Source: Dehalococcoidia bacterium UBA2158
GTDB taxonomy: Bacteria > Chloroflexota > Dehalococcoidia > Lucifugimonadales > UBA3495
NCBI GenBank assembly: GCA_002328185.1
Contig: DCWQ01000006.1
Coordinates: 14,047-78,046, forward strand
DNA: 64,000 nt
Reading direction: 5' to 3'
Part shown: piece by piece, positions 11,373 through 54,147 of the stretch
How positions within the stretch are numbered: position 1 is the first letter of the stretch
Layout of the letters: the number at the start of each line of letters is the position of its first letter
Notes under the pieces: generated by a model
Seen by the model: the letters and a program-made list of their open reading frames with translations, nothing else
The model's database searches: none
Told to the model about the DNA's origin: nothing
Position numbers and translations under genes: made by a program

Positions 11373-12212
11373 TCAGTTGCGGATCAACAAGCCTGGCTGA
11401 CACTTGCGGCAGTAACTGGTGATACGCTGGTTGGCGTTCAGTTGGGTGATCTTGCCGCCGCACTTGGGGCAAGGTTGACCGCCCTTGTTGTGCACCTGTA
11501 GGAAGTCGCGCACCTTCTTGTGAATGTCGCCGCCCATGCGCTCTCGGAGGGTCTCGGTGGCTTCTTCCAGCACCTGGCGGCACTGGGTGTGGAGTGTTTT
11601 AAGTTCGTCCGGCTTGAGGGCCCGGCATTTCTTGAAGGGCGATATGCCGGCGGAGAAGAGTATCTCGTCTGAGTAGGCGTTGCCGATGCCCGAGATGAAG
11701 GCTCCTCGGGTGAGGACGCCCTTGATCTCGCCGGTGAACTTCTTCAGCCGTTCTTGGAACTCGTCGAAGTCGATGATTGAGAGGACGTCGGGGCCCAGGC
11801 CGGTGTATTGGGGAACTAGGTCATCCTGGGCGTCGCTGCCGTCCTCGCCGTTAGCGATATAGTAGACCTTGCCCATCTGCCGGTCGTCCAGGTAACGCAG
11901 GTCCATGCCGCCGCCCACGTTCAACGACACACAGGTCTTCTTCTGGACTCGCACGCTTTCTTGGCAGTGTTGCAGCGCGCCGGTGAGCATGGGGTTGATC
12001 GCCAGACTGCGACCGCCGGAGAACCGCAGCGTCAGGAACTTGCCCTTCCGCTGGGCGTCCAACAGCGTTCGGCCGGGCAGGTCTTCGGTAATCTCGGTGG
12101 CCAGAGACCGCACAACCGTAGGCCGCAGGACCTTGCAGGACGCCACAGTCGCGTCCTTCAGGTTGGCGTTCAAGTAGTCCTTGATGACTTCCAAGTCTGG
12201 CGCTTCGGGCAT
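11373..12212 (-). CDS. mutM: formamidopyrimidine-DNA glycosylase / Nei-family DNA glycosylase-AP lyase
   Basis: The N-terminal MPEAPDLEV carries the catalytic Pro2. The H2TH region is IKGVLTRGAFISGIGNAYSDEILF and the C-terminal zinc finger is CPKCGGKITQLNANQRITSYCRKCQ. I moved the start to the ATG at 12212. Confidence 0.85.
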   Translation of the reverse strand: MPEAPDLEVIKDYLNANLKDATVASCKVLRPTVVRSLATEITEDLPGRTLLDAQRKGKFLTLRFSGGRSLAINPMLTGALQHCQESVRVQKKTCVSLNVGGGMDLRYLDDRQMGKVYYIANGEDGSDAQDDLVPQYTGLGPDVLSIIDFDEFQERLKKFTGEIKGVLTRGAFISGIGNAYSDEILFSAGISPFKKCRALKPDELKTLHTQCRQVLEEATETLRERMGGDIHKKVRDFLQVHNKGGQPCPKCGGKITQLNANQRITSYCRKCQPGLLIRN

Positions 12213-12308
12213 AGCGATAATATACAGCAACGATACAATCGGCGTCTGGATTACTGCTTTACCACGGGGGTCTTGTCATCCACATAGAAGGAGACTTAGC
12301 TCAGTATA

Positions 12309-12791
12309 ATGGGCGTTATGCTGATCGGCGTTGTATCCGACACCCATGGCTTCTATGACCTGCGTGTGCCGCCGCTGCTTGAGGGAGTGGAGCACATCCT
12401 GCATGCGGGCGACATTGGCTCGGGGCAGATCATCGAACAGCTATCGGAGATCGCGCCCGTGACGGCGGTGCGGGGCAACGCCGACCGGGAAGGGCCCGAG
12501 TCCGAGTTCCCTAAGATCGAGACTCTCGAATTGGGTGGATGCCGCATCTATTTGACCCACATCGTGAAAGTTCCAAAAGATGGGGACGATGCTGGGCTGG
12601 CGGCTTATTTGGTAAATGGAGCGGATGTGGTTGTGTTTGGCCACAGCCACATGGCTTTCCATGAATCGAGGGGCGGGCTGGCTTTCTTCAACCCCGGCGC
12701 GGCGGGCAAACGGCGGTTCAAGGTGGTGCCGTCCATCGGGTTGTTGGAGTTGGAGCCGGGGCTGGTGCAGGGGCGGATACTGGTTCTTTGA
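12309..12791 (+). CDS. YfcE/MJ0936-family metallophosphoesterase
   Basis: 160 aa with motifs VVSDTHG, HAGD, RGNAD and FGHSH. Confidence 0.8.
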   Translation: MGVMLIGVVSDTHGFYDLRVPPLLEGVEHILHAGDIGSGQIIEQLSEIAPVTAVRGNADREGPESEFPKIETLELGGCRIYLTHIVKVPKDGDDAGLAAYLVNGADVVVFGHSHMAFHESRGGLAFFNPGAAGKRRFKVVPSIGLLELEPGLVQGRILVL

Positions 12792-12816
12792 GGGTTGGTT
12801 TGTGCTGGGATGAAAA

Positions 12817-12856
12817 GCCCCCATCCTAATCTTCTCCCATGAGCGGGGGAAGGGAC
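12817..12856 (+). repeat. short hairpin repeat, copy A (CCCCATCCTAATCTTCTCCCATGAGCGGGGGAAGGGA)
   Basis: About 70-75 percent identical by eye to copy B at 14128-14168, in the same orientation. The two copies bracket the MFS gene. It contains the hairpin CTTCTCCC/GGGGGAAG. Confidence 0.55.
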
Positions 12857-14118
12857 TAACTACTTCTGCCTCTGACTGTGAAGAAGGCCAGCACCCCAGA
12901 GCCGACGGTTATGGCGGCTATGAGTTGGATGGCTGGTTTGAAGCCGAATAGGTCGGCTACGGCGCCGGCTAGCAGGGCGCCGACGATGAATCCGGCGTCG
13001 CGCCAGAACCGGTATACGCCCAGGAATGCCGCCCGGTCGGCGGCGGGTACGGCGTCGCCCACGGCGGCCAAAAGCGTGGGGTAGACCAGGGCTGTGCCCA
13101 AGCCGAGCAGAGCCATGGCACCGAGCCAGACACCGTAGGAGTCCACCCCCGCCGTTACAGAGATTGCCGTGCCCTGGAGCACCATGCCTACCGTGATTAG
13201 AGGTTTGCGCCCCAGGATGTCACTGGCCCAGCCGGTGGCCAGTTGGAGGCCGCCCCAGACCAGGGGGTAGACCGCGACCAAAATAGCGATTCGGTCCAGG
13301 GACAGGCCTTGACTGGCGAAATAGAGCGGGAAAATCCCCCAGGCCACACCGTCGTTCAGGTTTTTCACCAGTCCGGCTTGGGTGATCCCGAACAGGTAGG
13401 GCTTGCGCCAAGTGCCGTCGGCAAAGTTTGACTTGAATGATGAGCGAACTGGCGCCGCTCCTGAAATTCCGCCGGTTTCCAATGCTAGATGGGCCGACGT
13501 GTCCCGGATGAAGAGCACGCTAAAGGCCAGACCGGTGGCGGCTATGGCGGTTCCCAGGTAGAAGGGCTCGGGCCTAAGGCCGTAGGAGTCGGCGATGATC
13601 CCGGTCAATAACGCCATCACTGCCAGGGATGTATAGCCGGCTGTTTCGTTGAATCCCAGCACCAGTCCTCGGAACCTGGGTCCGGCCAGGTCCATCTTCA
13701 TGTTGACTGTCATGGACCAGGCAAGCCCCTGGTTTACACCCAATAATAGGTTGGCGCCGATGATCCAGCCCCAGGCAGGCGCCCAGATCAACAGTAGCGG
13801 CACCGGGATGCCGATCATCCAACCGGCGATGAGGATGCGCCGGCGGGTAAGCCATTGGGTGAGGGGTCCGACCAGGAGGTTGGATCCGGCCTTGGCCAGG
13901 CCGAAGGTGGCGATGAAGGAGACAACGGCGGTCTTGGAGGTGACGCCGAATTCTTGTTCGGCCAGTCCCGGCAGGATGGTGCGCTCCATGCCAATCATCC
14001 CGCCGACGAACATATTGGTGGCTACCAGCAGGGCGATCTGACGCCAGTTGTCGGACAGGCCGAGGGTGACTGGCCTTTGGGTGGACGCGAACGCGGGGAG
14101 CCAGTTAGTGATGCGCAT
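12856..14118 (-). CDS. MFS transporter
   Basis: 420 aa, about 12 predicted hydrophobic helices, with an MFS loop motif (GPLTQWLTRRR). Confidence 0.8.
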   Translation of the reverse strand: MRITNWLPAFASTQRPVTLGLSDNWRQIALLVATNMFVGGMIGMERTILPGLAEQEFGVTSKTAVVSFIATFGLAKAGSNLLVGPLTQWLTRRRILIAGWMIGIPVPLLLIWAPAWGWIIGANLLLGVNQGLAWSMTVNMKMDLAGPRFRGLVLGFNETAGYTSLAVMALLTGIIADSYGLRPEPFYLGTAIAATGLAFSVLFIRDTSAHLALETGGISGAAPVRSSFKSNFADGTWRKPYLFGITQAGLVKNLNDGVAWGIFPLYFASQGLSLDRIAILVAVYPLVWGGLQLATGWASDILGRKPLITVGMVLQGTAISVTAGVDSYGVWLGAMALLGLGTALVYPTLLAAVGDAVPAADRAAFLGVYRFWRDAGFIVGALLAGAVADLFGFKPAIQLIAAITVGSGVLAFFTVRGRSS

Positions 14119-19770: not shown

Positions 19771-22026
19771 ATGGCTACAGAAATAGCTAATCCCACGTCG
19801 GTCACTAGCCAGGTCGGCGGCAAAACCCTAACCATCGAAACTGGAAAATTGGCTAACCAGGCCCACGGTAGTGTGACTGTCACCTACGGCGAGACCATTG
19901 TTCTCGTCACGGCGGTCATGTCCAGCAGACCCCGGGCGGAGGACATCGACTTCCTGCCCCTAACGGTCGACTACGAAGAGAGGATGTACTCCGTTGGAAA
20001 GATTCCGGGGAGTTTCTTCCGCCGGGAAGGCCGCCCCGGACAGGACGGCATCCTGGCCTCCAGACTCACCGACCGTTCCATCAGGCCCCTTTTCCCCAAA
20101 GGTCTGCACAATGACATTCAAATCACCCTGACGATTCTTTCGTCCGACATGGAGAACCCGCCCGAGGTCTTGGGCATGATTGGCGCATCAGCCGCCATAT
20201 CCATATCCCAGATTCCCTTCAACGGCCCCATTGCCTCCTGCCGCATCGCCTATATAGGCGGGGAATACATCATTCACCCAACCTATGAGCAGACCAGTGA
20301 GAGCACGTTGAGCATGGTGGTCAGTAGCTCCCGCGACGCCGTCCTAATGGTCGAGGCGGGCGCAAATGAGGTCTCCGAGGAAGTGATCCTTGAGGCGATC
20401 GGCAAGGCCCAAGAGGCCAACACGGCCACCATCAATATGATCGAAGACCTGACCGGCAGGGTCGGGAAGCCCAAGGCTGAAGTCGAATACGACTATGCCG
20501 GCGCCGATGCCTTGGTCGCCAAGGTCAAAGAGGTAGTCGGATCCCGCTGGAGCGATCTGCTCGGCAACAACCCCGGCATGTACGAGATGGACGACGGTGA
20601 GCACGAGATCTCGGCGTTGGTCACCGAAGCCCTGAAAGACGATTACTCCAAGAACGCCATTGGAGACGCCTTCAAAGTCGTGTTCCGGGAGGCCGTTCGA
20701 GGCCGCATCCTGCAGGAACACGTGCGTTCAGACGGACGGGCCATGGACCAGGTCCGCCCAATCACCTGCGACACCGGCATCCTGCCCCGCACCCACGGCA
20801 CGGGACTCTTCACCCGGGGCGAGACCCAGGTGCTGTCCATCGTGACAGTGGGCTCCCTGAGCTTGAAACAGACCATTGACTCCGTCGGACCGGAAAACAC
20901 CCGGCGGTTCATGCACCATTACAACTTCCCGTCCTACTCCACCGGCGAAGCCCGGCGAGCCATGTCCCCCGGACGCCGCGAGATTGGACACGGGGCGTTG
21001 GCCGAGCGGGCGATCGCGCCCGTCCTGCCTTCCGAAGACGAATTCCCCTACGCCATCCGGATCGTTTCCGAGTGCCTGAGCTCCAATGGCAGTACCTCCA
21101 TGGGTAGTGTTTGCGGTAGCTCGCTAAGCCTGATGGACGCCGGCATTCCGATCAAAGCCCCGGTGGCGGGAATCGCCATGGGCCTGATCACCGGCGACGA
21201 CGGCCAGTACGCCATCCTCAGCGACATCCAGGGAATCGAAGATTTCCTGGGCGACATGGACTTCAAGGTGGCGGGCACCTCCGAAGGCGTGAATGCCCTC
21301 CAGATGGACGTCAAGACCACTCATCTGACCCCAGGCATCCTGAAGGAAGCCTTGGAGCAAGCGCGCCAGGGCCGCATGCACATCATGGGCAAGATGAACG
21401 AGGCCATCGCCGAGGTCCGCGGACAGATGAGCGAACACGCTCCCAAGATGGTCCGCATGAAGATCGAAGTTAGCAAGATCGGCGCTCTCATCGGCCCTGG
21501 CGGCCGGGTGATTCGCGCCATCATCGAAGAGACCGGCACCAGCATAAACGTGGAAGACGACGGCTCAGTGACCATCGGCGGCGTAGATTCCGCCATGCTG
21601 GAGCTGGCCGAGTCCAGGGTAGACGCCCTAACCCGCAATTTGGCCATCGGCGACATATTCACCGGCAAGGTGGTTCGCTTGACCAACTTTGGCGCCTTCG
21701 TGGAACTAGTCCCCGGCAAGGACGGCCTGATTCGCAACGGCGACCTAGGCGACATGGAAGAAGACCTCGCCGAGGGCCAAGAGCTCACGGTAATCATCCG
21801 CGAGATCGACTCCCAGGGAAGGGTAAACCTGTCCCGCAAGGCCCTGTTTGGCGACGACAGTCCTTCGGAACCCCGGCCCGCGCCCAGCGACGGTTTCAAC
21901 CGTGGCGGCGACAGGGGCGGACGCGGCGGAGACCGTGGCGGCCGTGGACCCGGCGGACCCGGTCGTGGACCCGGAGGCCCTGGCGGCGGATCTAGTGGCG
22001 GAGGACGCTTCCAAGGCGGCCGCTAA
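19771..22026 (+). CDS. pnp: polyribonucleotide nucleotidyltransferase (PNPase) with a Gly/Arg-rich C-terminal tail
   Basis: Two RNase PH domains, then KH (KIGALIGPGGRVIRAI) and S1 (GDIFTGKVVRLTNFGAFVEL) domains. I chose the ATG at 19771 (MATEIANP) over the track TTG at 19747. Confidence 0.95.
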   Translation: MATEIANPTSVTSQVGGKTLTIETGKLANQAHGSVTVTYGETIVLVTAVMSSRPRAEDIDFLPLTVDYEERMYSVGKIPGSFFRREGRPGQDGILASRLTDRSIRPLFPKGLHNDIQITLTILSSDMENPPEVLGMIGASAAISISQIPFNGPIASCRIAYIGGEYIIHPTYEQTSESTLSMVVSSSRDAVLMVEAGANEVSEEVILEAIGKAQEANTATINMIEDLTGRVGKPKAEVEYDYAGADALVAKVKEVVGSRWSDLLGNNPGMYEMDDGEHEISALVTEALKDDYSKNAIGDAFKVVFREAVRGRILQEHVRSDGRAMDQVRPITCDTGILPRTHGTGLFTRGETQVLSIVTVGSLSLKQTIDSVGPENTRRFMHHYNFPSYSTGEARRAMSPGRREIGHGALAERAIAPVLPSEDEFPYAIRIVSECLSSNGSTSMGSVCGSSLSLMDAGIPIKAPVAGIAMGLITGDDGQYAILSDIQGIEDFLGDMDFKVAGTSEGVNALQMDVKTTHLTPGILKEALEQARQGRMHIMGKMNEAIAEVRGQMSEHAPKMVRMKIEVSKIGALIGPGGRVIRAIIEETGTSINVEDDGSVTIGGVDSAMLELAESRVDALTRNLAIGDIFTGKVVRLTNFGAFVELVPGKDGLIRNGDLGDMEEDLAEGQELTVIIREIDSQGRVNLSRKALFGDDSPSEPRPAPSDGFNRGGDRGGRGGDRGGRGPGGPGRGPGGPGGGSSGGGRFQGGR

Positions 22027-22051
22027 TAGCACACCGGTTAACTAGCACACC

Positions 22052-22095
22052 AAAAGCCCCTTCACTCTAAGGAACGAAGGGGCTTTTTATTTTTC
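22052..22095 (+). terminator. intrinsic terminator after pnp
   Basis: AAAAGCCCCTTC-loop-GAAGGGGC followed by TTTTTATTTTT. Confidence 0.8.
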
Positions 22096-22308
22096 CGGAA
22101 TTCCGGCTGCGTGCTATTATCAGAGTGGGACTGGCTGGGCGGTTCGGGCTTATGCGGAGAGGTGGTTCGACGGGGCTCACCACGAACAGAACTAGGGCAA
22201 GAACGATTTCCAAACACCATCGTTCGTCCTAAGCCCCGTCGAAGGGCGCGCATCCGTGAAGTTTTTCGTGACCGCGACCCGCCCAGCAAAGCCCCGGTAG
22301 GAGCAATC

Positions 22309-37296: not shown

Positions 37297-38574
37297 CTAT
37301 TTCGCCCCTTCGAACACGCTTTCAAACGAACCAATGGTTGGTTTGATGGAGAGCGGGTTCACCACTTGCTCCACCGCCTCCTGGGTCTTGAGTCCGTTGC
37401 CAGTGATGTAAACGACGGTCAATTCATCGGGCTTTATGGCGCCTGACTTGGCCAGGTTCTTTAGACCTGAGACCGTCACGCCGCCGGCTGTCTCGGTGAA
37501 GATGCCTTCAGTCTCGGCCAACAGCTTGATGCCTTCCACTATATCCGATTCCGGCACCGCGTAGGCGGAGCCGCCGGACCTTTCGATCACTTTGATGGCG
37601 TAGATGCCGTCGGCCGGGTTGCCGATGGCCAGGGACTTAGCGATGCTGTCGGGCCGCACCGGGATGACCTGAGTCTGGTTACTGTTCCAGGCCGTGGCGA
37701 TAGGCGAGCATCCCTCAGCCTGTTGCATGTGCATCCTTGTGGTTACGGCCGGGTGATGAACGGTGTTCTGGTCCACGCCGAAGGAACTGGAGGAAACGCC
37801 GTCCAACAGGCCCAAACAGGCCAGCTCGTTGAATCCCTTCCAAATCTTGGTGAACATGGCGCCGGAGGCCGAAGGAACGACCACGTGGTCCGGAAGCCGC
37901 CAGCCCAGTTGCTCCGCCACTTCATAACCCAGGGTCTTGCTGCCCTCGGCGTAGTAAGGGCGCATGTTGATGTTTACGAAGGCCCAGGGGTAATCGTCGG
38001 CCAACTCGCTGCAGAGACGGTTAACCTGGTCGTAGGTGCCGTCCACGGCTACCAGCACAGGGTTGTAGATGGCAGCGCCGATAATCTTGCCCTTTTCCAA
38101 GTCGGAGGGGATGAAAACGACGGCGCGGACACCGGCCCGGGCACAGTGGGCCGCTACGCTACAGGCCAGATTTCCAGTCGAGGCGCAGGCGATGGTCTCG
38201 TAGCCGAATTCCAGGGCCTTGGTTGCCGCCACGGAAACCACCCGGTCTTTGAAAGAGAACGACGGGTTAACACTGTCGTTCTTGATGTACAGATTGCTGA
38301 GACCCAGCGTCTTACCCAGGCCTCTAGCTTTGATCAGAGGCGTGAAGCCTGCTTGGATGTCGACGGGGTCGTCACCCTGGGCAGGGAGCAGGTCCTTGTA
38401 ACGCCAGATGCTAAGCGGCCCCGAAGCGATACTGTCCTGACTGACCACCTCGGAGATGGTGGCGTAGTCGTATACCACTTCCAGAGGGCCGAAGCAGAAA
38501 TCGCATACGTTCAGCGGATCGGCAGGGTATTCTCTACCGCATTCGCGGCATTTAAGTCCATTTATGAAAGCCAC
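37297..38574 (-). CDS. threonine-synthase-like fold-type II PLP enzyme with N-terminal zinc ribbon
   Basis: 425 aa. CRECGREY...CDFCFGPLEV forms the zinc ribbon and the PLP lysine motif is FSFKDR. GTG start at 38574 after AGGAGGGA. Confidence 0.8.
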   Translation of the reverse strand: MAFINGLKCRECGREYPADPLNVCDFCFGPLEVVYDYATISEVVSQDSIASGPLSIWRYKDLLPAQGDDPVDIQAGFTPLIKARGLGKTLGLSNLYIKNDSVNPSFSFKDRVVSVAATKALEFGYETIACASTGNLACSVAAHCARAGVRAVVFIPSDLEKGKIIGAAIYNPVLVAVDGTYDQVNRLCSELADDYPWAFVNINMRPYYAEGSKTLGYEVAEQLGWRLPDHVVVPSASGAMFTKIWKGFNELACLGLLDGVSSSSFGVDQNTVHHPAVTTRMHMQQAEGCSPIATAWNSNQTQVIPVRPDSIAKSLAIGNPADGIYAIKVIERSGGSAYAVPESDIVEGIKLLAETEGIFTETAGGVTVSGLKNLAKSGAIKPDELTVVYITGNGLKTQEAVEQVVNPLSIKPTIGSFESVFEGAK

Positions 38575-38656
38575 CTAGGTCGGTCCCTCCTGGCCTCAAA
38601 AAGGCTGGCGCAAAAGCCCAAATAAGCCTGGAATATATCTCTCCAGGCTGCCAGTG

Positions 38657-38685
38657 ATAGTAACAAAGCACCTATGTGATGTCAA
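38657..38685 (-). promoter_or_regulatory. sigma-70-type promoter for the thrC-like/NIL/moaD-like operon
   Basis: On the minus strand: TTGACA (38685-38680), a 17-nt spacer, then TACTAT (38662-38657). It lies ~80 nt upstream of the GTG start. Confidence 0.5.
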
Positions 38686-38879
38686 CTTGGCTCACGCCTG
38701 GGAGAGGGCTTCCGTGAGCCTGAGAGCTCCTTCGTTCAAAATCCGGTCCGCGATGATATAATCCGCGGAGAATTTGCCCCCGGAGGGCGACCAGCATAAA
38801 TAATATCTGGGGAATACCTCTGCTCCGCCCACATCACATAAGCCTCCTTCAGCAGTTCTCCATACCACTCATCATTGGC

Positions 38880-46383: not shown

Positions 46384-47148
46384 CTAAAGGGCGGCTTCAA
46401 TTCTCTTGAGGAAATCTTGCCCGGCCAGCCGCAGCAGGGCCTGGGAGGACACGGTGATGAAGTTCGCGCCCAGGTTTATGAACTCGGCCACTCCCGCGGC
46501 GTCGGCTGGCGAGTTGCCGCCCGCGCCACAACTTTTGCCGGCGGCCCTGATCCTTGGAATCACCTGGCCCATCACTTCCCGCACCTTCTCCCGGCCCGGG
46601 TTCCCCATACTTTGACCCAGGTCACTGGCGGCCACGTGGACCACATCTATCCCGGAGACGCTCAGGATGGCATCCAGATTGTCCACCGCCTCGGTCTCCT
46701 CACACATTGGGACTACTAGGACTTGAGAGTTCACGAACAAGGTTGAGTCGGCGCCGCCCATCCCGTAATCATGGGCCCGCCCGCTACCCGCCATACCGCG
46801 GCGGCCGTCGGGATAGTAATGGGCCGACTGGGCCACAGACTCGGCGTTTTCTTTGGTGTTGATGTGGGGCACGATTATGCCCTGCACCCCTCGGTCTAGG
46901 TACCGCAAGATGGTGGACTCCTCGTGGTTGGGGATCCGGGTGATGGGTGTGATGTCAAAGGACTCAGCGGCCCGGACCATGTGTTCGACTTGGTCCAGGT
47001 TCATGGGGCCGTGCTCGCAGTCGATCATCACAAAGTCGAAGCCGATGGCGCCGAAAATCTCGACGATGTCGGGGGCGAAGCGGCTGACGATGGCGCCGTA
47101 GACGACTTTGCCCTCGGCCAGTTTGGTCTTGGTGGTGTTGGTTCGCAT
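46384..47148 (-). CDS. HpcH/HpaI-family aldolase
   Basis: 254 aa. FVMIDCEHGP, RIPNHE and the C-terminal TIM-barrel pattern are present. Confidence 0.8.
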   Translation of the reverse strand: MRTNTTKTKLAEGKVVYGAIVSRFAPDIVEIFGAIGFDFVMIDCEHGPMNLDQVEHMVRAAESFDITPITRIPNHEESTILRYLDRGVQGIIVPHINTKENAESVAQSAHYYPDGRRGMAGSGRAHDYGMGGADSTLFVNSQVLVVPMCEETEAVDNLDAILSVSGIDVVHVAASDLGQSMGNPGREKVREVMGQVIPRIRAAGKSCGAGGNSPADAAGVAEFINLGANFITVSSQALLRLAGQDFLKRIEAAL

Positions 47149-47309
47149 GGTTAGTTGGTATCCCTCCAGGAGGTCAGATGAGATATTATATAAAAAGCGG
47201 GCTTGGATGTGGCGCTGCTCCGCACGACGGCCAGCCTGAATATGACCTCACTTAGCTGATTTACCGGGGCTGCAGTTTCACTCTATATTTGCTGGGTAGG
47301 CGCAAACAC

Positions 47310-47339
47310 TTGACAAGGCTTCCGCTCGCATGCTAATAT
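47310..47339 (+). promoter_or_regulatory. near-consensus sigma-70 promoter of candidate sRNA unit 1
   Basis: TTGACA (47310-47315), an 18-nt spacer ending in TGC (extended -10), then TAATAT (47334-47339). The upstream block TAGGCGCAAACAC is conserved in unit 2. Confidence 0.6.
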
Positions 47340-47345
47340 AGCGAA

Positions 47346-47435
47346 GCGTTTCTCCAAATTGTTGGAAGCGCTCTTTTTTTGCCCAACGAATTCGGATAAT
47401 CAAAAGCCCCTCAATTCGAGGGGCTTTTTTATTTT
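47346..47435 (+). ncRNA. candidate small RNA, unit 1 (~90 nt; two hairpins, both followed by T-runs)
   Basis: Hairpin 1 has a lower stem AGCG/CGCT and an upper stem TCCAA/TTGGA (47345-47372), then T7. The single-stranded segment contains GGATAATCAA. Hairpin 2 is GCCCCTC-AATTC-GAGGGGC (47406-47424), then TTTTTTATTTT. There is no SD-preceded ORF. The TSS position is estimated from the promoter. Confidence 0.55.
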
Positions 47436-47565
47436 ATGCCGATCGTCTTTGCTCCCATGTCGCCATTATCGGTTGGAAAGCGTGTTTCAACAGCGCGCGA
47501 CGGGTCATCAGCGAATCAACGTCGACAGGAATTTCTGGGTATATTCGGTTCTTAGGCACAAACAC

Positions 47566-47595
47566 TTGACAAAACTACTTTCCGCGTGCTAACAT
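47566..47595 (+). promoter_or_regulatory. near-consensus sigma-70 promoter of candidate sRNA unit 2
   Basis: TTGACA (47566-47571), an 18-nt spacer ending in TGC, then TAACAT (47590-47595). It is preceded by TAGGCACAAACAC. Confidence 0.6.
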
Positions 47596-47601
47596 GGCGG
47601 A

Positions 47602-47690
47602 GCGTTTCCAGAAACTACTGGAGGCGCTCTTTTTCCCCCCAGCAAATATGGATAACCAAGAGTCCCTCACTTGAGGGGCTTTTCTTGTTT
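47602..47690 (+). ncRNA. candidate small RNA, unit 2 (paralogue of unit 1)
   Basis: Hairpin 1 is GAGCGTTTCCAG-AAACTA-CTGGAGGCGCTC (47600-47629; 12 bp including 2 G-U), then T5. The single-stranded segment contains GGATAACCAA. Hairpin 2 is AGTCCCTC-ACTT-GAGGGGCT (47661-47680), then TTTCTTGTTT. Confidence 0.55.
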
Positions 47691-47725
47691 GTGGGGCTAT
47701 TTCCGCGGTCAGGATTCGCTTCACT

Positions 47726-48706
47726 CTAAGGATTGTCGGCGAAAGCGGGCATCACGTCGCTGGCGAATCGCCGCAGAGTGGGGATTCCCGCCGGAGCATT
47801 GAGCAGAACGTATTCCACGCCGATGTCGTGAAGGGCTTGGATCTCTTTGCTGACGTGGTCGGTGGAACCGTAGATGGTCCCGGCTGCTGCCGCCTCGCGG
47901 GTGTCTTGGAAATTGGATTGTTGGGCCAGGTTCTGGGTGCGTAGGCGAGCGGCCATCCGGTTTTTCATTGCCTTGTCGTAGTCGTCCGTCGAGTCGAGGA
48001 TATTCACGGAGCGGGCCACGGCCACGCTCATTGGATCAAAAGTGCTGCCCAGGGCTTCGACTTCTGCCTTGTAGAGGGCGATTTCTTCGGCGATCAATTC
48101 GAAGGAATCGAATTGGCCCAACAACATGTTGAAGCCCAGCTTGGCCACCTGTTTGATCGATCTGGGACTCCCGGCACCCATCCATAGTTGTGGGTGGGGT
48201 TTTTGGGTACTGGGCGGCTCGACCACCACGTCGTTGTATTGCCAGTAGGCGCCCTTGTGAGACCACGGTGTGTCTGAGGTCCAGGCCTTCAGCATCACTT
48301 CCAGGCACTCTTCGAAGCGGGCGTCCGCTTCCTTGGTGGGCATGACAAACCCCTGGAACTCACTGAGGCGGTACCCCTTACCGATGCCGGCGTCGACCCG
48401 GCCTTCCGACAAAAGGTCCAACGTGGCGATCTGTTCTGCCAGCAGTACTGGGTTGTGCCAGGGGAGCACGATCACAGCAGTGCCCAACCGCAACGTGGTG
48501 GTTCGGGCCCCGATCCACGTCAGCAGATTCAGCGTCGCGGACACCTGGCCGAAGCCGGTGAAATGGTGCTCAACCAAGAAAGTGCTGTGATAGCCCAAAA
48601 ACTCCGCTTCAACATTGCGGTCTACGAACTCTCGGAACCCGGCCCCGCTATCAACGTCCGGCCCGCCGCGAGCTGCTTGTGCGCTCCCAAACATTCCAAA
48701 TTGCAT
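47726..48706 (-). CDS. LLM-class (luciferase-like) flavin/F420-dependent oxidoreductase
   Basis: 326 aa. The FLVEHHF, LGTAVIVLPWHNPV and GRVDAGIGKGY patterns are typical. Confidence 0.8.
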   Translation of the reverse strand: MQFGMFGSAQAARGGPDVDSGAGFREFVDRNVEAEFLGYHSTFLVEHHFTGFGQVSATLNLLTWIGARTTTLRLGTAVIVLPWHNPVLLAEQIATLDLLSEGRVDAGIGKGYRLSEFQGFVMPTKEADARFEECLEVMLKAWTSDTPWSHKGAYWQYNDVVVEPPSTQKPHPQLWMGAGSPRSIKQVAKLGFNMLLGQFDSFELIAEEIALYKAEVEALGSTFDPMSVAVARSVNILDSTDDYDKAMKNRMAARLRTQNLAQQSNFQDTREAAAAGTIYGSTDHVSKEIQALHDIGVEYVLLNAPAGIPTLRRFASDVMPAFADNP

Positions 48707-52299: not shown

Positions 52300-54147
52300 T
52301 TGAGTAATTTTCATAACGATGACATTCGCAATCTGGCCATAATCGCACACGTCGACCACGGCAAAACCACTCTGGTCGACGCTTTGTTGAAACAGGGCCA
52401 AGTCTTCCGCGCTCACCAAGATGTTGGTGAGCTGATCATGGACACCAACCCCCTGGAACGGGAGCGCGGCATCACCATCCTGGCCAAGAACGCTTCGGTC
52501 TCGTACAAGGGCGTGCGGATCAACATCATCGACACGCCGGGCCACGCCGATTTTAGCGGCGAGGTGGAGCGGATCATGAACATGGCCGACGGCTGTCTGC
52601 TGCTGGTGGACGCCGTGGACGGCCCCATGCCCCAGACGACTTACGTGCTGCGCCAGGCCCTTCAGCAGGGCGTCATACCCATGGTGGTCATCAACAAGAT
52701 CGACCGTCCGGAGGCCCGGGTGGCTGAGGTGTTGGAGATGGTCCAAGACTTGTTCTTGGAACTGGCTAGCAACGCCGAGCAACTCGAGTTCCCGGTACTG
52801 TATGCCTCAGCTAAGGGTGGTTACGCGACTACCGACCCGGCCGAACAGGGGACTGACATGACTCCTCTATTCGAGGCGATATTGGAATCGGTGCCGGCGC
52901 CCACGGGAGACCCCGACGCGCCACTGCAGATGCTGGTGGCCGCGCTGGACTACGACAACTATCTGGGACAGGTGGCCCTAGGCCGCATCACCAGAGGCAC
53001 CCTTAAACTGCGCGGTAATGTGGCCCTGCTGACCCGTGAAGACGAGCCCTCCACCCATAACCTGGAGCGGATATTCGTGTTCCGAGGCATGGAGCGAGTG
53101 GAAGTGCCCGAGGCCAAAGCCGGAGACATCGTGGCCATCACCGGCCCCGAAGGCGTTTCCATAGGCGATACCATCGCCTCACTGGAGAATCCCGAGGCCC
53201 TGCCAGTCATCGACATCGAAGAGCCGACTGTTCGGATGACCTTTGGCGTCAGTACATCACCGTTCATAGGCAAAGAGGGAGATCACTGCACATCACGCAA
53301 CCTGCGTGACCGGCTGTTCAGAGAGCTGCGTACCAATGTCAGCCTGCAGGTTGAGGCCACTTCAAACTCGGATATTTTTGTTGTGGCTGGGCGGGGAGAA
53401 CTGCATCTGTCGATCTTGGTCGAGACCATGCGCCGGGAGCAGTTCGAGTTTCAGGTGTCCAGGCCCGAGCCCGTCACCAAGGTGGTCGACGGGAGGATCT
53501 ACGAGCCCTACGAGATTCTGAACATCAGCACCAGCGATGAGTACATGGGCGCTTTGTCCGAGTACCTGTCCGGCCGGTTGGCCCAACTGCGCGACATGCG
53601 CTACGACGACAACGGCTACGTGCATCTGGAGTACAAGATTCCCACCCGCGGACTGATCGGGTTCAATTCATTCTTCCTTCGCACCTGCCGGGGCGACGGG
53701 GTTAAGAGCAGTATCTTCACCTCCTACGAGCCCATGGAGGGGGAGATCAAGGCCCAACCGGGCGGCGTGCTGGTGGCTTCGGAGCGCGGCGTCGCAGTGA
53801 CCTATGGCCTGCTGAACGCACAAGGCCGTGGTGAGACATTCGTCGACCCAGGTACCCAGGTCTACGAGGGCATGATCGTTGGCTCCCATCGCCGGGAAGG
53901 CGACATCGAGATCAACGTCTGCAAAGAGAAGAAATTGACCAACATGCGTTCGTCCACCGCTGACGTGGCCAAGCGCTTGAACGCCACGGTGATCATGAGC
54001 CTAGAAGAGGCCCTGGAGTTCATCTCCGACGATGAACTGCTGGAGGTCACACCCCAGAACTTCCGCCTGCGGAAGATGGACCTCTCAGCCCTGGACCGCA
54101 AACGCACCCGCCGCGACGGCCGCGAGGGAGTCCGCAATAGGGACTAG
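52300..54147 (+). CDS. typA: translational GTPase TypA/BipA
   Basis: 615 aa. [19 protein letters not shown] (G1), DTPGHADF (G3) and NKID (G4) are present, with an EF-G-like domain order. Confidence 0.95.

Follow-up and report, generated by a model that had tools for sequence, protein, structure and literature searches.

Two tandem units in a 577-nucleotide (nt) gap of a 64,000-nt stretch from Dehalococcoidia bacterium UBA2158 (contig DCWQ01000006.1; the whole stretch is called the window, and positions are counted from its first letter) are considered in this study to be tandem paralogues of a previously undescribed, multi-copy small-RNA gene family in marine SAR202 bacteria. Each would specify an independent, trans-acting RNA of about 90-95 nt, and a probability of roughly 0.55 is given to this reading. 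The window, of about 59% G+C, is from a marine SAR202 (Chloroflexota, Dehalococcoidia) population. An earlier note on this DNA had proposed two paralogous, self-contained candidate small-RNA genes with a structure under selection, a proposal supported at the level of sequence by about 100 strong homologues, covarying helices, slow change and mixed orientation to the neighbouring genes. By sequence, both units have a promoter of their own, as well as their own terminator with no co-transcribed downstream gene, and the structure is supported by covariation in an alignment fitted to the model.

Each unit would form its own transcription unit, driven by a strong sigma-70-type extended -10 promoter and a family-specific upstream block. 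Transcription is predicted to start at the base of a 12-bp hairpin (hairpin 1) and to proceed through U7, GCCC and a short purine-rich linker into a second hairpin (terminator 2), where the 3' end of the RNA would lie; a form of ~38 nt would arise whenever hairpin 1 and U7 terminate transcription. The RNA would act in trans, with the invariant 5' hairpin and U7-GCCC as a protein-binding site and/or pairing region, and a factor reading the upstream block would set its expression. Copies of the family that lie 3' of genes and have no promoter may give versions of the same RNA borne in the 3' untranslated region (3'-UTR).

The gap (47149-47725) separates two minus-strand genes, an HpcH/HpaI aldolase gene (HpcH_HpaI; 46384-47148), which is the divergent neighbour of unit 1, and a gene for a luciferase-like monooxygenase (LLM; Bac_luciferase; 47726-48706), which is convergent to both units. 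Two plus-strand units of the same layout, 256 nt apart, had been described in this gap, and they were recovered as a direct repeat of ~150 nt (47284-47434 and 47540-47690) with 72% identity ungapped and 76% over 139 nt by BLAST. The next plus-strand gene, typA, starts at 52300, 4.6 kb 3' of the units, as had been stated.

All the following features are on the plus strand. Unit 1 opens with a distal upstream motif, TATATTT (47284-47290), which is kept in unit 2 and forms an information peak in the profile of 66 canonical copies. The upstream block TAGGCGCAAACAC (47297-47309; family consensus TCTAGGCACAAA, 1.1-1.7 bits per position) adjoins the -35 element of the promoter (47310-47339), which the promoter scan resolved as TTGACA, an 18-nt spacer with terminal TGC and TAATAT. 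Hairpin 1 with C and T7 follows (47345-47380; hairpin 47345-47372, T7 47374-47380), then a linker (47381-47401) whose GCCC is kept and whose remainder, including GGATAATCAA, varies across the family, and finally terminator 2 from the terminator scan (47402-47435; stem 47402-47428 and a T-rich tail). The covariance model matches this RNA at 47343-47438 with 86 bits.

Unit 2 repeats this order with the distal motif TATATT (47540-47545), kept between the units and present in the family promoter profile, the block TAGGCACAAACAC (47553-47565), found both as a repeat in the window and in the family profile, and a promoter at 47566-47595 with the same -35 and spacer layout and TAACAT as its -10. These promoter elements agree with those originally reported. 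The folded hairpin 1 of unit 2 (12 bp, GAGCG...CGCTC) and its T5 occupy 47600-47634, the hairpin lying at 47601-47628 or, with the outermost G-C pair, at 47600-47629, and T5 at 47630-47634. After the linker CCCCCAGCAAATATGGATAACCA (47635-47657) comes terminator 2 (47658-47690; hairpin 47658-47683, terminator scan), located 36 nt from the LLM stop codon; it may also end the LLM transcript. The model match spans 47599-47693 with 92 bits. In both units, hairpin 1 begins five nt past the -10, at or beside the predicted transcript start, and the linker is 21-23 nt long. The reported succession of a hairpin with T7 or T5 and a GC-rich terminator hairpin was reproduced in the folds, the second hairpins also in the terminator scan. 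It was also observed that a 15-nt stretch 5' of the unit 1 promoter (TCTATATTTGCTGGG, 47282-47296) is 93% complementary to part of the unit 2 linker (CCCAGCAAATATGGA, 47638-47652), probably by chance, judging from the lack of the match in a related locus (L229).

Extent of the family and constraint on the RNA

A scan of metagenomes with a promoter-free pattern of hairpin 1 returned at least 120 loci, comprising about 99 true members and about 22 chance matches. A covariance model built from 12 members was then applied to 99 loci (533 kb) from SAR202/Dehalococcoidia metagenome-assembled genomes (MAGs) and marine metagenomes, giving 119 matches among the loci listed, of which about 100 are strong (54 bits or more). 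The 118 pattern-matched copies contain 106 distinct 90-mers. In the window the model found the two units only, at 92 and 86 bits, with nothing else above 18 bits; a match of 17 bits at 22013-22096 is an ordinary terminator. A scan of a genome collection with a pattern of promoter and RNA start yielded at least eight SAR202/Dehalococcoidia copies, located in ALOHA_A2.0_5 (two contigs), ALOHA_A2.0_6 (two copies 2 kb apart), ALOHA_A2.5_21, OSU_TB47, NORP26 and a TARA bin, most of the other matches being tRNA promoters of Clostridia. Among viral contigs the hairpin 1 pattern gave one chance match only. Besides the window, two or three copies occur within 10 kb in L228, L229, L243, L146, L167, L187, L234 and L127; L228 has three copies in 5 kb and L229 a tandem pair 246 nt apart.

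Hairpin 1, in the fold a 12-bp stem of -10 to -17 kcal/mol with U5-U7 after it, reaches -10.2 kcal/mol in unit 1 and -16.7 kcal/mol (z = -5.1) in unit 2, and the whole predicted RNAs of the two units are far more stable than their shuffles (z = -4.3 and -4.5). Across the family, hairpin 1 is 28, 29 or 30 nt long and has a mean energy of -14.4 kcal/mol; 75 of 99 copies have U7. The compensatory exchange at the top of hairpin 1, which had been pointed out earlier as a sign of selection on RNA structure, is real, an A-U pair in unit 1 corresponding to a G-C pair in unit 2 in both the alignment and the folds. Among 117 distinct rows, 97.1% of the cells of the family alignment are standard pairs, compared with 91.2% in shuffles and 36-60% in slid controls, and 17 of the 21 pairs have changes on both sides, none of 500 shuffles reaching any of the observed measures, although fitting the alignment to the model has biased these counts towards the structure. 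Helix 1 is 98% paired and helix 2 96%, with nine of the ten helix 2 pairs changed on both sides. Both helices were also recovered in a separate MAFFT/RNAalifold analysis of 12 sequences. The exchanges in helix 1 are mainly between U-A and U-G (UA:58/UG:43; UG:90/UA:19; UG:108), and since these would be A.C mismatches on the other strand, the RNA appears to be read from the promoter strand only.

The weighted family consensus is GgAGCGUUUUCAgAAAuUncUGaagGCGCUCUUUUUUUGCCCggCg..AaaGAUga.aaAAgcCCCCUC....GAGGGGgcUUUU. Hairpin 1 and U7-GCCC are near-invariant, at about 1.6-2 bits per position; the linker is variable and terminator 2 covaries freely. In the arms of hairpin 1 (GGAGCGUUUUCAG...CUGAAGGCGCUC) it is the sequence that is kept and not the pairing alone, and this near-invariance extends to promoter-less copies, suggesting that it is the RNA that carries the function and not a DNA operator. 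Given that terminators such as terminator 2 covary freely, hairpin 1 is also unlikely to be merely a terminator. The sole conserved unpaired stretch of the family is CUCUUUUUUUGCCC. GGATAAYCAA, which had been put forward as a conserved unpaired seed, does not hold that place; the stretch is variable and A/G-rich in the family, and in unit 1 it pairs with the U-tail of the terminator. The CGCUCUU of the 3' arm, with the U-tract, resembles the start of boxA sequences.

Conservation of the units in related genomes, on which the earlier note had let its proposal depend, was found at the aldolase locus, where units are kept beside HpcH down to 78% protein identity. Ten contigs with an identical LLM protein, from TARA and other marine metagenomes and including the MAGs GCA_009392475.1 and GCA_002686935.1, are ~99.9% identical to the window, gap included, and are thus uninformative on variation. 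The contigs compared carry aldolase homologues of 75-90% protein identity, the close homologues being labelled SAR202 cluster bacterium or Chloroflexi. A single unit on the opposite strand just 5' of the aldolase gene was found in L011 (89%), L012 (80%), L017 (78%) and L263 (78%), and what flanks it on the other side is different in each (a molybdopterin hydroxylase, an LLM or unrelated genes). The tandem pair between LLM and aldolase is retained in L229; one unit is found there in L159, L165 and L207, and one unit without LLM in L157/L242, L214 and L011 (5735-6000). Altogether, the divergent placement of a unit to HpcH persists despite different other neighbours in L011, L012, L017, L157, L159, L165, L207, L229 and L263.

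The RNA part is 68-88% identical between the window and its orthologues, compared with 44-78% at the third codon positions of aldolase in the same pairs. Between the window and L229, moreover, the units are better kept than the inter-unit spacer, which carries a 10-nt indel. An RNA that changes more slowly than aldolase third codon positions, in units better kept than their spacer, points to purifying selection on the units. The presence of LLM and of the second unit varies among close relatives, and the single unit of L159 looks chimeric, with a 5' end like unit 1 and a 3' end like unit 2; from these sequence features, duplication and recombination between units are suggested.

No unit was found at the aldolase of L261/L262 (75% identity). 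In L261, a more distant relative, a nucleotide-cyclase gene (Guanylate_cyc) and, after it, a PycTM-domain gene (11930-13287) are located ~1.2 kb downstream of the aldolase homologue, a pairing that resembles Pycsar anti-phage systems. In L014 (SAR202 Io17-Chloro-G6), a relic of hairpin 1, GGGGTGTTTTCATGAATTGCTGAAGTGGCAGTTTTCGCCCGG, was recognized by eye 5' of the aldolase homologue at about 250-330 on the minus strand. It has no promoter, its stem base is broken, and it falls below detection by the model at E <= 0.01. The unit 2 orthologue of L229 (9894-9988, minus strand) has two A.A mismatches in hairpin 1 (AGCGTTAACAG...CTGAAGGCGCT, -8.5 kcal/mol), the orthologous copy in L180 being intact, and one tandem copy may be decaying in the L229 lineage.

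Promoter and upstream block

Both units have a TTGACA element, an 18-nt spacer and an extended -10 (TAATAT or TAACAT) with the TG extension, matching the consensus at 10 of 12 positions. Such promoters, with full-consensus TTGACA and an extended -10, occur three times in the whole 64-kb window, where 0.02 are expected, and two of the three belong to the units. The 19-mer TAGGCRCAAACACTTGACA is found in the 64 kb at 47297 and 47553 only (0.00 expected in shuffles), and in each unit TAGGCRCAAACAC leads directly into TTGACA. The family promoter profile, derived from the 66 canonical copies, reads gTATTtT-N9-TCTAGGCACAAA-N3-TTGACA-N15-(GCA)TGCTAnnAT-N5, with the distal motif gTATTtT at about -60. 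Its information peaks at the motifs and is low across the spacers; a conservation confined in this way to the motifs is not uniform and tracks function.

In about 600 kb of SAR202 sequence the block followed by TTGACA occurs 73 times in association with units. Another 15 occurrences are 'orphans', most of which are units in loci outside the model search, with two real exceptions. One is in L249 (6373-6700, minus strand), where a canonical block, CTAGGCACAAAACATTGACA, and a TAATCT -10 precede a T-box leader (RF00230, 109 bits). The other concerns the third consensus extended -10 promoter of the window (38657-38685, minus strand), which has a variant block, AGGCGTGA, upstream and, downstream, a 5' hairpin and a U-rich leader ahead of a PALP-family gene (37297-38574), possibly encoding threonine synthase; this layout of variant-block promoter and PALP gene (window 38565-38700, minus strand) is kept in L242 near 11993. 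The occurrence of the block before a T-box leader and a PALP gene suggests a promoter element or a regulator site shared with at least one other gene. The idea of a 'stable-RNA promoter' was rejected, as the window's two tRNA genes do not have the upstream block of the units. The sequence TTTTCAGAAAA resembles the CodY-box core.

A pattern of TTGACA-N14-16-TGCTAnnAT-N5-AGCGTT was observed in more than 100 loci of Clostridia/Oscillospiraceae MAGs (L020-L139, e.g. L020 rc 6906, L024, L038 and L077). Nearly all of these lie directly 5' of tRNA genes, sometimes with a small AAGCGTTCTC...GAGAGCGCTT hairpin after, and their appearance is that of a conserved promoter of tRNA operons with AAGCGTT at the start. 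They were judged to be unrelated to the SAR202 family, with which they have the promoter consensus alone in common.

Genomic context and competing explanations

Nearly all copies of the family are intergenic, the few overlaps with open reading frames (ORFs) stemming from a crude ORF caller. Their flanking genes are diverse and encode hydrolases, an MFS transporter, an ABM-domain protein, a beta-lactamase-family protein, an aldo-keto reductase and a TPR protein. Copies with a promoter have a convergent gene downstream in 35 cases and a co-directional one in 23; on their upstream side, 38 genes are co-directional and 36 divergent. This mixture argues for an independent gene and not a leader. Stop codons of convergent genes are often found 13-35 nt from terminator 2, which therefore probably works in both directions. 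The upstream flank is complete for 112 copies; the promoter is canonical in 87 of them and rearranged in about seven. Of the strong copies without a promoter, seven out of eight lie ~30-110 nt past a co-directional ORF, with homology beginning near the predicted transcript start. Homology between paralogues otherwise begins at about -65 and ends after the U-run of terminator 2. Alignments of the two units and of paralogues revealed no terminal inverted repeats or duplicated flanks, the only inverted repeats being the hairpin arms.

Several observations weigh against an independent trans-acting RNA. Promoters and RNA ends are predictions, as are the short and the long form, and a regulatory RNA made up of hardly more than two terminator-like hairpins would be unusual. 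Duplex energies between the linkers and the 5' regions of the 54 long ORFs of this single 64-kb window were no better than those of shuffles. Hairpin 1, unlike the second hairpins, is not called by a simple terminator scan, its high identity between paralogues could in part be owed to recent spread or gene conversion, and the pair counts carry the bias stated above. The T-box leader in L249 shows that the upstream block also occurs outside the family. The promoter is lacking in eight strong copies, from about five distinct loci, and terminator 2 is missing in L127a, L155, L168 and L187-5744. Decayed copies (L014 and weak model matches) are present and many contigs end inside a unit, as would be the case for a dispersed repeat; such contig ends are expected of any repeated sequence.

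The units might accordingly be viewed as a dispersed intergenic repeat, similar to REP, BOX or miniature inverted-repeat transposable elements (MITEs), or as a 'mobile promoter-terminator' cassette, spreading or being copied within SAR202 genomes, transcribed only incidentally and with no role in trans. This explanation is held to be unlikely, if the most credible of the alternatives. It would account for the many and often clustered copies and the contigs interrupted within them, for relics and copies deprived of promoter or terminator 2, for the close likeness of paralogues in hairpin 1 and for the recombinant look of L159. The earlier note had named fragments of a mobile element, in many degenerate copies lacking the promoter, as a danger to its proposal; dispersal in multiple copies, some of them promoter-less, was indeed found, whereas 87 of the 112 copies keep the promoter, conservation is functional in pattern, following the -35, the extended -10, the upstream block, the helix arms and U7, and neither terminal inverted repeats nor flanking duplications were seen in the units and paralogues compared. 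At one locus, moreover, orthologous copies are retained by relatives whose neighbouring protein is as little as 78% identical, and they change more slowly than its synonymous sites; copies are also intergenic rather than scattered at random. Somewhat less likely is a module controlling transcription in cis, in which the strong promoter, back to back with that of HpcH and directed into two terminators, would tune this divergent gene through supercoiling or competition for RNA polymerase. Terminator 2 would serve to insulate the convergent gene or to end it, and the RNA itself would be irrelevant. The pairing of unit and HpcH in several lineages with otherwise different neighbours agrees with such a module, as do the short distances of 13-35 nt between terminator 2 and convergent stops in many loci (36 nt for LLM) and the symmetry of A-tract and U-tract in terminator 2, which suits bidirectional termination. 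Other copies, however, have unrelated neighbours in every orientation, so that the module fits this locus and not the whole family, and both the near-invariant sequence of hairpin 1 and its retention in promoter-less 3'-UTR copies are left unaccounted for.

A further, rather doubtful variant is that the main product is the ~38-nt RNA of hairpin 1 and its U-tail, acting as a decoy that titrates a hairpin-recognising protein. It would be made from many loci by promoters among the strongest types, and its target would be an RNA chaperone of terminator hairpins or an elongation or termination factor; if so, the family would provide SAR202 with a genome-wide dial on termination or RNA stability, controlled by the reader of the TAGGCACAAA block. 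Much more improbable is an attenuator or leader, with hairpin 1 and U7 as a conditional terminator for a downstream gene. A co-directional gene does lie 27-340 nt downstream in 23 of 58 family members, and a few copies have no terminator 2, e.g. L127a before a beta-lactamase-family gene, L187 and L188, but the other 35 of the 58 face a convergent gene, most copies have a second strong terminator, no alternative (antiterminator) fold is predicted, and a hairpin of 28-30 nt is too small for a typical ligand sensor. For the two copies in the window, which both face the convergent LLM gene, with the next plus-strand gene 4.6 kb off, an attenuator is close to excluded by gene orientation. The least credible explanation is that either strand encodes a very small protein or forms a toxin-antitoxin-like locus. 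The gap is overlapped by mechanical ORFs of 39-77 codons and AUG occurs in many linkers of the family, but AUG is absent from unit 1, L011 and others, no Shine-Dalgarno sequence lies ahead of the gap ORFs, as the earlier note had stated for the units, and substitutions follow the pattern of paired helices. Any frame is broken by the indels of 1-2 nt in hairpin 1 and by the 10-nt indel in the spacer relative to L229. The trans-acting RNA described above is preferred over these explanations.

Relation to known RNAs and significance

In Rfam 15, only the two tRNAs of the window reach the gathering score. Within the gap, the best match at E <= 10 is Phe_leader with 31 bits, compared with a gathering score of 55, and its alignment rests on the terminator; for the loci L228, L082 and L229 Rfam gave nothing relevant. 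As to the small-RNA motifs described in Chloroflexi of which the earlier note was reminded, neither Chloroflexi-1 nor any other Rfam family matched the units. The Chloroflexi-1 model in particular had no match in the gap at E <= 10, nor in three other loci of the family at E <= 0.1. Chloroflexi-1 (RF01698; Weinberg et al. 2010, PMC2864571) is listed for Chloroflexus aggregans only. Like the SAR202 family, it is a candidate small RNA of Chloroflexota; the SAR202 family differs in its occurrence in marine SAR202/Dehalococcoidia, its sequence-invariant 5' hairpin with U7 and its conserved promoter block. Reportedly, the Chloroflexi-1 motif has a pair of stem-loops ahead of a terminator and occurs in several neighbouring copies.

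Multi-copy families in which each small-RNA gene has a conserved, regulator-controlled promoter and a terminator include the cyanobacterial Yfr2 RNAs, the NsiR1 tandem arrays, the streptococcal csRNAs and Qrr1-5 of Vibrio. The SAR202 family shares with these the presence of paralogues in a genome, sometimes in tandem, an arrangement of promoter, RNA and terminator in units of ~60-150 nt, a conserved motif 5' of the core promoter and a conserved RNA segment beside a variable terminator. There is, however, no similarity in sequence or structure, the Rfam models for these families were unmatched, and the conserved part in the SAR202 family is a paired 5' hairpin with a U-tract instead of an unpaired seed. 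Both SAR202 hairpins also resemble intrinsic terminators in having a GC-rich stem and a U-run, but ordinary terminators do not keep their sequence across unrelated loci and species, as hairpin 1 does. Promoter-less copies directly after co-directional genes are similar to small RNAs from 3'-UTRs, as they would end the messenger RNA and could be released as RNAs; the difference is that the 87 canonical copies have their own promoter, with the transcript placed to begin at the hairpin.

Short intergenic repeats of bacteria, some of which carry promoters or terminators, include REP/BIME, BOX, ERIC and Correia elements and MITEs. The units are comparable to these in being ~150 nt long, intergenic, multi-copy, rich in hairpins and assembly-interrupting, and differ in that neither terminal inverted repeats nor target duplications were seen and that their conservation is patterned on promoter and helices, syntenic and constrained. 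No description of SAR202 small RNAs was found in full-text searches of the literature. Taken by its sequence, the family is a new candidate small-RNA family with an unusual terminator-like hairpin at the 5' end.

Few bacterial groups of the dark ocean are as abundant as SAR202, whose large sets of oxidative enzymes are thought to attack recalcitrant organic matter. The repeated units explain why SAR202 assemblies break at these sites. The alignment and model suffice for deposition as a new RNA family, which can be searched for in existing deep-ocean metatranscriptomes, and through its upstream block the family hints at a regulator, possibly with a wider regulon. An RNA family that is conserved, multi-copy and strongly promoted offers a concrete handle on gene regulation in SAR202.

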